Below are positions 54,430 through 62,000 of a DNA stretch of 64,000 nucleotides, piece by piece. This stretch comes from Trichodelitschia bisporula. Lineage: Eukaryota. The stretch's first letter is position 1, and each line of letters starts with the position of its first letter. The notes under the pieces were generated by a model. It ran no database searches. It was not told the DNA's origin and saw only the letters and a program-made list of their open reading frames with translations. The translations under genes and the position numbers were made by a program. The stretch spans positions 700,691 through 764,690 of the forward strand of contig ML996689.1 of assembly GCA_010356995.1 (NCBI GenBank). The letters run 5' to 3'.

Positions 54430-55385
54430 ACAGGGCGCTGTAGGGACCAAAGTCATTACGTGACGCCAGCATCCACCGCGCTTCCTGAGAGTACGGACAA
54501 CGCCGGCGGACACTAATTATAATTCTGCATTGCGACGATCATATCTGCTCAGGGAGGTTTGCGCAGGGAGTCCGGAGTTTGGATAGCAGTGCTGGAGCGA
54601 TTCGACGAAAACCGCAAAATTGAATTGTTTGACGGGAATTCCGAACCCACGAAGTGCTGCAGTAACCTGAAGCTGCGAATTGGTTCCGACATCCGTTCGT
54701 TGTGTGGGTGAATTTTTTTTCGTGGGGCGGACGGATCGGGGCTGGCGTGGTAGCCGTCACCGTTGGCCACGTACATGCGCACCTTCGTTGGGGACGCACT
54801 TCGCTGTGCATATCTGCATCCTGCACGTCCAACATATAGGGTTTTCCGGGGTTGAAGCTTTCGTTGCGGTGAGTGGAAGGCTTTTTTTTTCGCCCCAAGT
54901 AGCGGTGGATTATGCCATTGCGCGAGCGAGTTAGTGGTTGTTCCTGCGATCGTGTACATTCGCCGTAGGAGCTGCCGCGGTTATGTTTTAATGTCTTTTC
55001 CCTGTCTAGTTGGTGTGCTTTCAGCATACACTACTGGGTCCATCAGTAGGGTATCTTTGGGACTTGTAGCTGTGAAGTGACATGATGAGTGTTTGTTCAA
55101 TTGGGTACCTCAGACTGCAAACCTGTCGGCCAGTCAGGGTTAGAAAGCCGGCAGAGATTTCACCAAAAGGGAGGGACATGAAGCTCTAGTTGTAAGTCTT
55201 TAGTTGATAAACCTGCGAGCACAAAGATGTGCGGCTGGCCTCGCTTTGTTGTCCTCAATAGGCTTTGCTCAAAATACGCTCCTGCTCCAAAGGCTGTACA
55301 CTGAACCGACGAGTACTCTGCACGCTCGCAATACGAGGGCATTCAGGCAGCGTTGATCGTCGCAAGGAAGGTCGCATAGGCCGCA

Positions 55386-57029
55386 TCAAACCGTGCGGCG
55401 ATCCGTCATGACGCGCGCGATGCTACCCGGGCCCGCGATCTCTACGACCTGGATATGATCGTTAGCATCCCATTCGCTAGGTTTATGATCTACTGAGACT
55501 GATGGATAGGACATAATCGCTTAAGTATCGTGCAGCTCCCGTAACCAGTCTCGCGAGCGCAGACAAAGAAAAGAAAAGCGGAACGGAACGGACCTTCTCA
55601 TGCCAGCTGAGCAGCACGCTCATCGCCTGGCCACTAGTATCACCACCGAGCGAGCGATGTGAGATCTGCGAGAAGCCCGTGGGTTGTGGCGAAATAGCCT
55701 TAGGGCCAGAAGGCGTGTGGGATGAGTTGAGGGCCATCCCGCGGTAGCTGCGACATGAGGTGGTTAGTGACATGAAGATTAGGTGGGGGAAAGACCTGAG
55801 GAAATGAGAAGATTGGAAAGGCGGGATGAAATGTAGGGACATGTTTCTGAAGGACAAAGACGTATGTGTGTGGGAATATGCGATAGCGATTTCGCGATGG
55901 TGGCGCGTGAGCGCGGCTAATCCCGACCCCAGCCTCACGGCCCTAGACTCCAAAGACAGACGTCGGAGCAAGCCTTACACGTGGAAACGCCACTGTGACA
56001 TTAGGGTGGGGGTTGAGAATGGGGGGTGAGACGGAGATATATCGAGTTGGGAAGGACCGATGCCGGAAATCAAGGAGTCTCATACATGTACTTCATCAGT
56101 GTATCCAAGACCTCCGACCCGCCTTCGCTCTGGTATATCCGGCTCAGAATTGGCGACATCTCCGACTGGCGGATAGACTGTAGAATCTCGATGACGGTCG
56201 CGAGGTGAATTTCCTGTGACATTCCTAGTTAGTAGACCGTACAAGGTTCCCAGCCTTGATTCAGCTTCGTAATCCGATGCCAAGCCATAGCGGACGCTGA
56301 TAGACTCTACGCGCATTGGACAAAAACGCCGAAAGACGAAGAATGGAGATTGAGAAAGCAATGCGAGAAACCCGTATTATCAAACAGAAAGCCACAAGAC
56401 CAAACGCCACACGATACAAAGCCCGGCGAACAAGAAACTTGCGACATGTCTATCGGCTCAGACGAATGACGAGACAGCAATATGGTATTTGCCGCTGGGA
56501 AGAAACCCCACAAAATTCGCCCCTAGGCAGCCATCGATGGAGCAACAGGGCTGTTACCAATAGCAACCTCAGCATGAGGAAGCGAGAAAGGGAGGAGAGG
56601 ACGTTGGAGTGCCAATTTGCTTTTTGGAACCCCCCATGCCTGTCATCCAACACCCACGCGCCAAGGCCCCCCAATCGTAACGTCAACTCATATCATAACC
56701 CAGGGAGACAAGAAGGTTAGAGAACCAAGGGGAGCGTAACATCCCAAGGTAGGATGACTGTTGCCCAAAGCATGCAAAGGGAAAAAAGACCCACGCACCT
56801 TGCCTCGTCCGTCCGCACCGTACGGTGCAGTGTCCAGGGCGCCTCGGAGCGCACCCTCAAAGTCACCCCCGCGTAGCAACTGCCGTATCTGGGCCGTAAG
56901 CGCCTGGACGTCGGCTGTCGCAACGGAGGGCGCAGAGGGTGTAAGAGTGGAAAGGTCGAAGTTTGCCGGCGAGTCCGGGTCGAGCGCGTCGACATTGATG
57001 GTGCGCCAGTTCTGCTGGACCGATGTCAT
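55386..57029 (-). CDS. ARC15: Arp2/3 complex subunit ARPC5/Arc15
   Basis: Exons 56799-57029, 56086-56213, 55594-55747, 55386-55448. WRTINVDALDPD, ALDTAPYG, LDTLMKYIYRGM, SVLLSWHEKVVEIAGPGSIARVMTDRRTV*. Confidence 0.95.
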
Positions 57030-58939
57030 GGCTGCGGCTGGTAGAAACGGAGGTCACTCGGGGAGGTGCGGGGCGAGACCTTCTCGGGATTCGGCAACGT
57101 CGTGGAGGGCGGTGCTGTGCGCTGGATGTCAGGTGGCGCCGTTGTATAGGCGATTTATTTCGGATGAGTAGAGGCGGGGGGGGTTGTGCTGCTGTCTGAA
57201 GGGTTGACGGAGGAGGGGGCTGAGCAAGCGGGATGCGTGTGGAAATGCCAGCGGGTGGTGGTGCGGCTCAAGCTGAGGTGAATGGCTTGTGTACAGTAAG
57301 ATGTGATGATGGCAGGCCGGGGTGGGGAGCTCTTGGGTGGGTGGAGTGGATTTGGGACGTGGGGGGAGGAAAGGTGGGAGGCGGAGGAGCTCTTGTTGCC
57401 AAGAATACGGGATGACAGCGTTTGGGAAACCGCGAAGCAAGTGGGGGGGGCAGGGGTGGTTGACATGGGATTTGCGCGGGGGAGGAGCGACCTATGTCGA
57501 TGCCTCATCGTTGCCTCATTAGCTAAACCATCAGGGAAAAAGTGGCCGACGAAGAAAGAGGAGAGGAGAAGACAAGAGCTGCAAGGCTTGCACATCCACC
57601 CGACCAACCTGGTGTGCGATCATGCAAGGCTCGACGGCTTAATCAGAGTCCTTCCAGGTCCAGCATGGTTACAACGTCCAACGCACCTAGCGCTGCAGCG
57701 GGAGACGCCTCCCGCTTCGCTCGTGTGATGGCTGCAGACCAAATGGGCGAATACCGTGCTCATGAAATGCATCACATCGCCGAGAACCGGCGCACAAAGA
57801 GTTCCCACAATGTGCAATATTAGAAGTCAGGCATATTTTTGGTGATGGTGATGAACGACGTGGGAATCACGATACTACACGTACAACGCTTCTTCGCTGC
57901 GGAAAGGTTCCAATGTCAATGTTGCGCTAGTACACCTAGTCCTGAGAAACAGCATTCCGCGACCAAGCCAGGATCGCTCCAGTACACTGGGCATAATTAA
58001 GCCATAAGACAACCGCCCACAACCTTGGGAAAAACTCCCTCCCAAGTGCCACATTGGTATGAGAAACGAGGAAAAAAACACGTCCCAGATGCGCCATACT
58101 GCCGAAGAGATGGAGCGCGTACTCCTCGATCTCCGACCCACATCTAGTAATACATGTCTGTTCCAAAAAGAGCCAAAAGCCAAACACTAAAAGTGGTGAT
58201 GTCCTTGCGCGAGCAAGTCAAAAGTCTATAAGCATACCAAGAGAAGAGAAGTGCGTGAACCAGATAACAACCAACCCAGTTTTTGGTATCTCGTGCCCGA
58301 GCCCCCCTTCCCAATCTTTCTGAACGCCGAACTTTTTGTATCCAGAGAAACGAGCTGAACAACCCAAGGAATGCAAGGAGACAGGCAGCCGAGAGACAAG
58401 AATGCTGCGGGATGATGATGATACAGGGGAATTTTGCTGAGAAAAGGTCGTAGCAAGGAGGAAAAAGTCTATCATGTCGCAGTCGAAGGGTGATCGCTCA
58501 GACGCTGAAGGTGATCGCCACTCGAACGGCCGACAAAGGAACACTTGCGCCCCCCAAAAAAATGTCGACATTAGAAAAAGGCGTACAGGGTATCCGAAAA
58601 GGTCGTCCAAGAAGGCGAAGAGGAGAGAGATTAGATGTAATCGGAGGCGATGACTGAAAGAGTACGCGGCTTCGGATGCCTGCAGCGGGGCGCGACTCCG
58701 TCAGTCACCCATCCTGGCTCGTTGCACGTAGGGTTACCGCGCGACGAGGAAGGTGTTGCGCGGCAGGGGTTGCCGCGCGGATCGATGCCCTTTTGACGTA
58801 CTGTGCAGCACCAACACCATCCTTCTCGCGCGCCAGGGGAAGGAGACTGGATAGTGAGCCCGAACCGACACAGCATCGTCCAAAGATCGTGAGGCGATCC
58901 ACCGGCCCTGTGCGCAAAAAAGGGAAAAAAGGTAATCGA

Positions 58940-59041
58940 CTACCGCCGCTTTGGAGGCGGTGGTGGCGGCTTCGGCGTGCCCGTCGTATCGTACGCTCCA
59001 CGACCCATATGAATGCACGGGTAGATTTCCCTGACGATCAT
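58940..59041 (-). CDS. Candidate 33-aa micropeptide MIVREIYPCIHMGRGAYDTTGTPKPPPPPPKRR
   Basis: ATG in a strong TTCAAAATG context, 19 nt after a canonical intron 3' end (GCTAAT branch, TATAG acceptor at 59061). Upstream donors GTGAGT (59154) and GTAAGC (59116). Confidence 0.55.
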   Translation of the reverse strand: MIVREIYPCIHMGRGAYDTTGTPKPPPPPPKRR

Positions 59042-62000
59042 TTTGAAGGACTCTGGAGACCTATATATCAAGATACCAAATTAGCATCACGGCGGAACCA
59101 TTTTTCCACGGCTTACGCCGTTCTGACGGCGCAGGTCATGCTTAGGTGACTCACTCTTGCAGGCAGTAGACTTGGAGCCCGGGGTACTCCGTACTTCGTG
59201 GGGGACTCTCAGTGGAGAGTAGGGGACTGCGGCAATGCGCGTAAACGTGGCGCGGTAGCTGGCTGGTTGGTACGAGAGAGCGGTGGGCCGACAGGTCGGG
59301 GTCCGGGGCAGAGAACCGTCTTGGTAGGGGAAGCGGAATGCGTAGTCCGTCTCGGGGAAACGTGGGGAGAAGGGTGCGGTGACGAAGGTGAGAGTCGAGG
59401 TCGCAAGGACGTGGGCGTTGCTTTCGTTATGTAGTCGTTGGACCGGCAAGCATTTGAAAGCAAGCGGGCAGGCAGTGGTGAGCAATCGCAGGCGGAGAGA
59501 CGGATATGGGCAGGCTGTTGGTGGTCAGGAGAATGTGGCGCCCAATGTGATGGTGACGGCGTGGGGTGAATGTGATGGAATGATGGGGGCGGATGGGATG
59601 TCTTGCGCCAGGGGAGAGGGCGAAGCAAGTCCTTTATGAAGGAGTATGGAAGTGGAGAGAGAAGAGGAGATGTGTGTGGAAGATGGTTTGTATGGAGGAG
59701 AGCACGATTAGAAAAAGTTGACGGGATGTGTGGACATGAAATAATAAGAGCAAGGCCCCTTTCTTACTGTGCAAGGTACATGGTCCGTGAAGGGAGGGGT
59801 GTGTGGATGGGATGGTAGACAAAACCGAGACAATCTGGAAATTGATTTTTGACAATGACCACCATGACGTGCCCGGAGGGAGGCCGACAAGCACTCTAGT
59901 CGGGTTGTTTCGAAAGAGAAGCCCTGCCCCATACCGTGAGCGCCCCCATGAGTCCGTGAGTCTGTGAGTCCGTGAGACTGTGACTTTTAGTGAAGCTGGG
60001 AGCCTGGAAAGGGAAAAGGAAGACAGGGCCTGTGTGAGGCTTCTAGGCCCAAGCCAGTTGGAGAGAGAGAGGAGGCCGACAAAGAATGGGCAATAGAGTG
60101 ATAGTGATGGGCCGGTCTTGCCTGAGCGAGTTGTGAAGCCTATCCCTTTTTGGGGAGAGGAGACCATTCTTCTTTGCTTTCAAGAAAAAAAGGTTGGGTC
60201 GATACAATTCCAGCGAATAGGTTCACGCTCCACACCCTTGCAGTGGCTTGCTAGGCTTGGGGACGGGGGTGGCAGTTGTGGAAGGGGTGGGAGTTGGTGG
60301 GAAGTTAGGTGGGAGGTGGACTGGGGGGAGGAGGATTGAGAGCGATTGGGAGTGATTGGGAGCGACCAGGAGGTGGCATGGTTAGCATGGAAGGCTGGAG
60401 GGGATGGGCTTGCGGCGTTGCCCTGCCGCCCTGCAGGTACCAGAAGGAGACAACGATACTTCTTTTTCATAGAGGACTGAAAGCCAAAAGGTGACCCTAA
60501 AATCCAAAGGCTAGCCGCGGACTTCTCTCTAACCAAAGCCACTTGCCTCTAGTTCTACCGTAGCCTTGAGGAAAGCCTTGTCTCCCGTCTCTTGGAGCCC
60601 CACTGCGTACGTTGGATACTGTGGTCCGTAGACACTTGTACTATGCCACGCTATGAATTTTCCCTAGTCAACCTCATCTCTTGTCAATGCACCGTTGGGC
60701 CTTCAAAGGAATAGATCATCCTCTCTAACCTAGTGATCCTCCCTCAACGTTGTTGTCGTCGTACAATAGCCCTTTCCATCCTTTCTCGAAGGGCCTGTCG
60801 TTTGTATCCTAACCACTTCCTATCAAACGCAGGTCCCGCAAGGACACATACATTTGCGCGACTTGTAACGTCCCCGATCCCTCTTCTCAGCTCCTCCAAG
60901 CCCTGTAATTCAATATGCTTGGGCTCCTTTCTCATCGCCGCATCGGCCGTTATGGATGTGGTTGTCGCCGCCCCATCGCCGAGCTTCCCACCGGCCGCTT
61001 AGCTTCGCCGTACATCCTCCTCCGCCTACCCCCAAGGGTGGTTGGCACTGCACATCAACAGGCCTAGTCTGGTATCCGAACACACAAAAACACGAACAAA
61101 GAAGGAGAGTGAGAAGCAAACTGGATTACCGGACCGTGCGCGCGATGTCGCCCGCCGTGCCCGTCGGGCCATCCTGCCACTAGTGCTGGGCTTGGGCTTG
61201 GGCTGCTCTTTCCCCTCCCCAGCTTGGTGTCGTATCCGCCATCCCATCAGCTGTGTTAAGGGGTGCTCCCCTGGATACGTCCCTTTTTTCCCCTTCAAAG
61301 CGGCCACCCTTCGTGGAATTCGTGCCATCCCGCACGCCGTAAAAGAAAAAAGTCACGCCTACGAGCCTATCACGACGGCCTACTCATCCGCTGTGCCCGA
61401 TTTCCAAAATCTCACTCCTGCGACTGGTGTGACAGAAAGTTTAGTCGGAGGCCACAACCATATCGCCTTTCCTTTCTGCTCCTCCGATATGACGCAGCGT
61501 TGAGCGAGATAGGCAACTGCATTATGGTTCTGGCCGGACTGAGTATCGCACACAATTCAGCTGCCCGTAGGCCTCCAGAGCAGAGTAGGGAGAGTAACAC
61601 ATCCATTTCCCAATATAGATGGGATAGTGGATGGGGGTGGAGGACGCCGCTTCGCGCCTCTTCTGGGCGCTGTCTGTTACTAGCTGGCCTCGCATTATCC
61701 CACCCTTCCCCGTCGACTCAACCAGACGAGTCAGGTCTAGTTCAAGAGGCCGAATGGAGGTTAATCACACATACGGGATACCTTGCGGCTTTGACGTTGC
61801 TTGAGGCGCGCGCATCGTATCCGCGCGCCCACGAAGAATCATGCGAGACGCAGCAGTCAACAAAAGCGGGTCGGCGGATGAGTCGACAACTTTCGGCGAA
61901 GGGCAACGTTGAGAAATGTGCCGATGAGCCTTCTTGAAAATGCAACGGCCGTGTAAATCTGCGAGCGGGACGGTAGCGCAACAAGGCGCGGCGGCGGCAC

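Follow-up and report, generated by a model that had tools for sequence, protein, structure and literature searches.

A candidate gene for a conserved 33-residue peptide upstream of ARPC5 in Trichodelitschia bisporula

Short fungal reading frames whose peptide product, rather than the RNA, is conserved across distant species include the arginine attenuator peptide (AAP) of arg-2/CPA1, a frame of about 24 codons that lies in the leader directly before the main open reading frame (ORF), where it acts in cis and stalls the ribosome. Here we analyse a short ORF (sORF) of 33 codons on the minus strand of a stretch of 64,000 nucleotides (nt) from Trichodelitschia bisporula (contig ML996689.1; the whole stretch is hereafter called the window), upstream of the gene for ARPC5 on the same strand. 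Like AAP, it belongs to a family of short fungal frames in which the peptide and not the RNA is conserved. Unlike AAP, it is separated from the next ORF by 1.1–2.4 kb and 9–31 AUGs, this next ORF is absent in two lineages, and the conserved module can be duplicated. A transcribed and spliced gene for a 33-residue peptide, belonging to a new family of Pezizomycotina, is in our judgement the best explanation of the locus as a whole (probability about 0.6), and it is very probable that the sORF is a translated and selected peptide gene.

Two further systems resemble this locus. The Drosophila tarsal-less/polished-rice RNAs look non-coding and encode tiny peptides, which carry one short multi-copy motif and act in trans on a conserved protein. 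Their copies are separate sORFs and are confined to arthropods, whereas here a single ORF holds one to three in-frame modules; no sequence kinship is claimed. The genes for pheromone precursors of the Neurospora mfa-1 type likewise have a very short ORF, carried on a far longer transcript whose 3' untranslated region (UTR) is long. Such precursors end in a CaaX box, whereas the members of the fungal micropeptide family end in a K/R-rich stretch.

A peptide family with a conserved core

As the 33-residue product was too short a query, the protein search was performed with the window's 46-codon stop-to-stop frame. All 17 protein candidates, 25–81 amino acids (aa) long, share the core (M)GRGAYDTTGTPKP, and most also have an N-terminal MIxRE. 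None of these 17 proteins is identical to the window peptide (best matches of 49–100% over part of the query), which is unannotated in the protein collection at 25–81 aa and in the window's own gene set. A metagenome DNA scan, based on an alignment of the candidates and the pattern GAYDTTGT, gave 111 pattern matches, 43 of which were confirmed, resulting in 36 loci. The exact core is present in 35 of them, and the remaining one reads MARGAYDTTGT. Together with the window, 34 loci provide 29 distinct sORF DNA sequences; 22 distinct peptides were found among the loci. A profile search of 1.84 billion representatives returned 200 protein clusters at E ≤ 1e-3 (58 at E ≤ 1e-10). Most motif-bearing proteins (129 of 157) stop within 24 residues past the Tyr, and core variants (GRGS, GRGG, ARGA, YDIT and YDNT) are rare.

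A total of 34 loci and about 150 database proteins retain the start, frame and approximate end of the ORF. At fourfold sites the codon table contains every base, and Arg codons alternate between CGN and AGA, while the residues are fixed. Among 27 distinct sequences, the proportion of synonymous differences (pS) is 0.65–0.72, which is near saturation. The ratio of nonsynonymous to synonymous proportions (pN/pS) is 0 for the residues of the search pattern, 0.011 for M-G-R, which lie outside this pattern, and 0.21 in each of two flanking segments, the first four codons and the three that follow the core. At the DNA level, the match between the window and its relatives is confined to 59067/59050..58938 (blastn), apart from three weak low-complexity matches. 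Judged from these alignments, selection is on the amino-acid sequence rather than on the RNA. The initial annotation, made from the letters of the window, had proposed peptide-level conservation and selection as a check on its small-peptide gene, and a pN/pS of 0–0.21 at this pS provides both.

The constrained module can be written as [M/F/W/Y]-G-R-G-[A/S]-Y-D-T-T-G-[T/V/L]-x-K-P, followed by a short basic Pro/Lys-rich tail; the N-terminal M-I-x-R is constrained to a lesser degree. GRG is preceded by M, F, W or Y, and at times by Q, T or S. An internal Met at this position had been suggested as the start of a 22-aa form, which does not hold up, as many relatives have F, W, Y, Q or T there.

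The Pro/Lys-rich tail varies in sequence and length among members. PPP is absent from L001, from Zymoseptoria, Bipolaris and Pyrenophora, and from several Xylariales, which have KPKPKP tails; three or more consecutive prolines, the eIF5A-dependent polyproline stall motif, are not kept in all members. The window tail TPKPPPPPPKRR resembles SH3/profilin ligands in having PxxP with flanking basic residues, and its AlphaFold model is predicted to be extended. Unlike in such ligands, neither the exact spacing nor the proline run is conserved, and what stays invariant is the non-proline core; any binding is putative. The initial annotation had likened the tail to SH3/profilin-binding ligands or to a ribosome-stalling sequence. 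Because the tail varies and several members lack PPP, polyproline is not supported as the key feature, and polyproline stalling and profilin binding are both disfavoured as conserved properties.

In Xylariales, one ORF may contain two or three complete modules with acidic linkers between them. Such tandem-module genes occur in Xylaria, Rostrohypoxylon, Anthostomella (two genes) and Annulohypoxylon. From its layout, a frame with tandem modules would be more in keeping with a peptide product than with one arrest site.

An AlphaFold model of the peptide, calculated from the alignment, is predicted to be extended, with no helix or sheet and with a turn at Y17–P23 (pLDDT, the predicted local distance difference test, of 77). 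The peptide matched no family in Pfam, had no usable match in the ESM Atlas and matched no entry of known motif libraries. The sole sequence match in the PDB is yeast SLH1, with GRPAYDTTGT against GRGAYDTTGT of the peptide (residues 13–22, window 59013–58984; E = 1.4). SLH1 is the helicase of the ribosome-quality-control trigger complex, which is curious given the stall-like tail of the peptide; the likeness is probably due to chance. In P0076, P0082 and like members, TTGVKKP after Tyr-Asp resembles what we take to be the sequence of histone H3 around K36 (TGGVKKP); most members have P-K-P there.

To establish the breadth of the family, 30 proteins were looked up by name, 12 of which were nameless, and names were added from the protein search. 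Members were found in Dothideomycetes (Saccharata, Venturia, Microthyrium, Alternaria, Aureobasidium, Cercospora, Zymoseptoria, Bipolaris, Pyrenophora), Sordariomycetes (Xylaria, Rostrohypoxylon, Anthostomella, Annulohypoxylon, Eutypa, Thermothelomyces, Trichoderma, Colletotrichum, Neurospora, Purpureocillium) and Leotiomycetes (Sclerotinia); no Eurotiomycete is among the named members. All named members are annotated as hypothetical or predicted proteins. Some records, including P0060, P0096, P0042 and P0047, contain the peptide only as the C-terminal end of a long hypothetical protein, of 320 aa in Neurospora tetrasperma and 614 aa in another record. The upstream extensions are implausible, and these models look like gene-model errors.

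The literature search found no paper that mentions the core motif or six of the family's locus tags. The peptide was not found in the consulted passages of a survey of conserved fungal sORFs (PMC7394265), and GRGAYD and YDTTG do not occur in three of its supplements. By its sequence relationships, the peptide founds a hitherto undescribed, widespread family of Pezizomycotina. Few peptides of about 30 residues are so deeply conserved, and most of them escape automatic annotation. A core that is unchanged in three classes of fungi implies that its partner or process is important and conserved to the same degree, and as the family is present in model fungi and major crop pathogens, its function is directly testable by genetics.

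Transcript, 5'-UTR intron and leader

The RNA evidence consists of contigs from two runs, X1 and X2, of one sample in one study, compared with the window over 55000–62000. Neither run is recorded as RNA. Both were judged to be RNA-derived solely from intron-skipping joints, because the same contigs lack the three ARPC5 introns. Contig data of this kind are blind to transcript starts, ends and rare isoforms. Five joints in this region have CT..AC ends on the plus strand, equivalent to GT..AG introns on the minus strand. Three of them excise the ARPC5 introns and reproduce the annotated protein P0159. Another, 59058>59153 (94 nt skipped, cut +2), corresponds to the intron 59154..59061 just upstream of the sORF and is present in both X1 and X2.

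Around the sORF, the contigs cover about 2.4 kb of a minus-strand transcript (57898–60414), with 58925–60130 and 57921–58921 in X1 and 59153–60414 and 57898–58900 in X2. The minus-strand transcript and the junction 59154>59061, both named beforehand as evidence to look for, are therefore found in the contigs of both runs. Purifying selection and a stable transcript, as expected of a micropeptide gene, are both observed. With transcript, junction and conservation found, and no identical protein at 25–81 aa, the proposal of an unannotated spliced small-peptide gene is borne out. The same proposal placed the gene in an upstream 'gene desert', a description that stands only in part, as this region contains the gene's own first exon (contigs to 60130 in X1 and 60414 in X2). 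It also called the 3' region U-rich; T makes up only 27% of it.

All letters and sites on which the initial annotation was built were recovered at their minus-strand positions. Read directly, these are the donor-like GTGAGT at 59154 and GTAAGC at 59116, an ATG at 59139, the branch/acceptor stretch GATGCTAATTTGGTATCTTGATATATAG (GCTAAT...TATATAG) ending at 59061, and the 33-aa ORF, which starts in a CAAAATG context (A of the ATG at 59041) and stops with TAG at 58942–58940. From the two donors, 94- and 56-nt introns and hence two isoforms, with peptides of 33 and 47 aa, had been predicted. The inner GTAAGC and the in-frame ATG at 59139 do exist, and the arithmetic of the 47-aa form is correct. 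However, only the 94-nt joint is present: the X1 and X2 contigs have no joint at the inner donor (59116>59061), and none of them covers 59117–59154. The depth of the bin 58978–59211 is exactly accounted for by the spliced contig (643 x 140/234 = 384.6), and therefore no assembled form keeps 59117–59154. Furthermore, the positions of intronic ATGs differ between loci, and the relatives have no conserved upstream in-frame extension. We therefore consider the use of alternative donors to make two isoforms very improbable.

The spliced transcript has no long credible ORF. Codon scores are negative for its 177-, 117-, 81- and 74-aa frames, and likewise for frames of 48 and 53 aa, which lie in the 3' UTR together with the 117- and 81-aa frames; the 177-, 117- and 81-aa frames have no Pfam match, and none of the transcript's other ORFs is conserved as DNA in the relatives. 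Rfam and tRNA scans gave no relevant match. With a codon score of 0.078, the sORF is in the top 16% of 147 small ORFs, which is not decisive at 33 codons.

Most related loci have a donor, a CTRAC branch site and an acceptor just upstream of the sORF, with the acceptor 14–53 nt before the AUG. Intron conservation had also been proposed as a check, and the 5'-UTR intron indeed recurs at the same position in most relatives. A strict intron pattern is matched by 19 of the 29 distinct upstream sequences. In most of the others the intron is visible by eye, with unusual donors or AAG acceptors; L001 has none. All ATGs within 270–600 nt 5' of the sORF AUG are inside the intron (in L032, one overlaps the donor); the window's 94-nt intron contains three, at 59139, 59101 and 59087. 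Across 25 loci, the 300 nt preceding the donor (7410 nt in total) contain 9 ATGs versus 63.6 expected from base composition and 30–51 occurrences of the permuted triplets. The leader of the window is ATG-free over 298 nt (59452..59155), with ATGs at 59453, 59737, 59781, 59865 and further up. As nearby AUGs are lost with the intron, the spliced window RNA has a long AUG-free leader of at least 317 nt, and the sORF AUG, which is in good context, comes first. The start codon is thus reachable by scanning ribosomes. This is a compact design, in which a 5'-UTR intron removes upstream AUGs and a tiny ORF becomes the first in a long leader.

These data also bear on whether the locus encodes a non-coding RNA in which the 33-codon ORF is incidental. 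A transcript of about 2.4 kb with no long ORF, and with an unremarkable codon score for the sORF, would be in keeping with such an RNA, which would have to be new given that Rfam has no match. Yet conservation does not extend beyond the ORF and has a codon pattern, the ORF's start, frame and approximate end persist across the 34 loci and about 150 proteins, and the leader is depleted of AUGs, all of which makes a non-coding RNA scarcely credible.

Conserved blocks were also detected on either side of the sORF. Using nhmmer, block U1 (TTGAAACAGCCCCGAAAGA ... CCGGCACGTCATG) was located 390–740 nt before the AUG in 19 related loci. It includes an ACGTCA core, which is typical of bZIP sites, and its position is approximately where the AUG-free leader begins in the relatives. 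Because it marks the approximate start of this leader, U1 may be a promoter element. Block D1 lies 3' of the stop, at +170..+420 nt from the AUG, in seven lineages (L010, L011, L017, L018, L020, L021, L036). It contains a small hairpin, GTTCC-gtt-GGGAAC, followed by an apparent 3'-UTR intron, CGTCGTAAGT ... CTGACTAAC ... CTGCAG. Block D2, with TTTTAATAATCAGCG, is situated about 100 nt beyond D1. The window was not among the hits of nhmmer searches with U1, D1 and D2, and neither D1 nor D2 was found in it. A 3'-UTR intron can trigger nonsense-mediated decay in Neurospora, and the D1 intron, if spliced, could make the mRNA a target of this pathway.

The splice sites themselves have recurrent letters. 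In related loci and in the window (59154–59147), the donor is often GTGAGTCA(ACC), which contains TGAGTCA, and the 3' end of the intron is often CTGACATATAAAGCAG, which includes a TATA-like element some 30 nt 5' of the AUG. Both could reflect a splice-site preference or an internal promoter.

The ARPC5 neighbourhood and possible modes of action

Exon 1 of ARPC5 starts at 57029 on the same strand as the sORF, and this exon is 100% identical to an annotated ARPC5 of the Dothideomycete Trichodelitschia bisporula (P0159). Of 20 loci in which the downstream flank extends for at least 1.5 kb, 12 have ARPC5 next on the same strand; they represent 10 distinct sORF sequences. ARPC5 is spaced from the sORF by 1108–2331 nt in nine distinct loci and by 1910 nt in the window. 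One contig with both sORF and ARPC5, L007, has an ARPC5 that is 87–90% identical to Helotiales proteins; the arrangement is therefore common to two classes. Synteny with ARPC5, which had been suggested as a test of the gene, is thus retained in 12 of 20 informative loci.

The other eight loci fall into two sequence groups, in which other, convergent genes lie downstream: a 2OG-Fe(II) oxygenase, a glyoxalase-like gene and SRP40. A protein named Aureobasidium matches one of the groups, and the neighbours in loci without ARPC5 include no recurrent partner gene. As two lineages carry the sORF without ARPC5 downstream, the gene is an independent unit. Between the sORF stop and the ARPC5 AUG there are 9–31 AUGs, with no depletion of ATGs. 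Neither this distance, 1108–2331 nt with its intervening ATGs, nor the inconstant linkage agrees with a conserved-peptide upstream ORF (uORF), and the idea of a classical uORF of ARPC5 is not supported.

A more general cis-acting frame, in which the nascent peptide slows or arrests the ribosome to control its own RNA or ARPC5 while the free peptide has no role, is rather unlikely, if far from negligible. Its layout does resemble that of arrest peptides, with prolines close to the end and the core 7–22 residues ahead of the stop. The sORF is upstream of ARPC5 on the same strand in the 12 loci mentioned above, including the Helotiales contig, and the apparent 3'-UTR intron block of seven lineages could couple termination to mRNA decay. 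Against this stand the 9–31 undepleted AUGs before the ARPC5 AUG, the convergent genes in place of ARPC5 in eight loci of two lineages, the variable last residues and distance to the stop, and the PPP runs missing in several members. A single arrest site would also not be expected to show the complete module in tandem copies within one ORF.

The repeated cores and acidic linkers in Xylariales are also reminiscent of multi-copy peptide precursors. The product could then be the precursor of a processed or exported peptide, either signalling or similar to ribosomally synthesised and post-translationally modified peptides (RiPPs), with the core as the mature part. Many members end in KRR or KR, and the size is like that of leaderless fungal peptide precursors. 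However, no signal peptide or hydrophobic N-terminus is apparent by eye, there is no CaaX end, dibasic sites do not consistently flank the core, and the linkers have no regular KR sites. No recurrent gene for a modifying enzyme or transporter adjoins the sORF, with neighbours differing by lineage, and a core that is invariant over three classes would be unusual for secreted signals. A processed precursor therefore appears clearly improbable.

A lipopeptide pheromone precursor was rejected, as the members have no CaaX box and end in K, KRR, KPR, SK and similar. The only CaaX-like ORF in the transcript, of 48 aa (...CLMA, 58143..57997), was also discarded; its codon score is negative and it is not conserved.

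For the peptide gene itself, we lean, at slightly less than even odds, towards a free, unfolded linear-motif peptide that acts in trans. A highly conserved cellular protein would be bound by the GRGAYDTTG turn, which is invariant, and by the extended Pro/Lys tail, and the two to three tandem modules in Xylariales would raise valency. Because the tandem arrangement of sORF and ARPC5 is common to Dothideomycetes and the Helotiales contig, the Arp2/3 and actin-patch machinery would be the first place to seek a partner. In a more specific version, which is speculative and which we consider improbable, the peptide would be a pan-Pezizomycotina micro-regulator or accessory subunit of this machinery, with GRGAYDTTG and the tail binding a core actin-assembly protein. 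Adjacency to ARPC5 would then have been retained through co-regulation since before the split of Dothideomycetes and Leotiomycetes. A complex prediction for ARPC5 and the peptide had a score of 0.00, which is no evidence either way.

Several points weigh against a translated peptide gene with a trans-acting product. Translation of the sORF is something that we infer, and all RNA evidence comes from a single sample. The invariance of the core is partly a matter of ascertainment, since the DNA scan used the pattern GAYDTTGT and the hidden Markov model search favours similar sequences. Likewise, the counts of AUG depletion are not independent, as many of the loci are close relatives. Contigs reaching 60130 and 60414, beyond the AUG-free stretch, would place up to 10 AUGs before the sORF. 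The peptide has no match in known domain or motif libraries. An unfolded peptide of 33 residues may be short-lived, and by analogy, ribosome-arrest peptides too have the look of a conserved core with a Pro-rich end.

Features of the locus

The coordinates of the sORF gene and of ARPC5 are collected in Table 1. The first intron of ARPC5 is 585 nt long (56798..56213).

Table 1. Features of the sORF locus and of ARPC5 in the window
Feature	Position	Strand	Evidence
sORF, 33 codons plus stop, product MIVREIYPCIHMGRGAYDTTGTPKPPPPPPKRR	58940..59041	-	ORF listing; pN/pS 0–0.21, pS 0.65–0.72
Exon-2 leader, 19 nt, A at -3 relative to the AUG	59042..59060	-	sequence and RNA contigs
5'-UTR intron, 94 nt, GTGAGT...GCTAAT...TATAG	59061..59154	-	removed in contigs of both runs
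Inner GTAAGC donor, use not evidenced	59111..59116	-	letters present, no joint
Exon 1, non-coding leader	59155..60414	-	contigs to 60130 (X1) and 60414 (X2)
3' UTR, about 1 kb, collinear with the genome, sequence not conserved	57898..58939	-	contigs; no blastn match in relatives
Probable counterpart of upstream block U1, GAAACAACCC ... CACGTCATG	59863..59911	-	pattern match only
ARPC5, four coding exons	55386..57029	-	introns out at 56798>56212, 56086>55747, 55591>55445
GAYDTTGTPKPPPPPPK, fragment of the sORF product			

The contig of ARPC5 reaches 565 nt 5' of its AUG (57029–57594), and the last 400 nt contain no ATG. The stretch between this contig and the sORF transcript, 57594–57898, is uncovered, which is uninformative on read-through either way. 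Further upstream of the sORF, in the supposed desert, a low-depth X2 contig skips 58 nt with CT..AC ends at 61716–61775, which suggests a second, weakly expressed spliced transcript on the minus strand.

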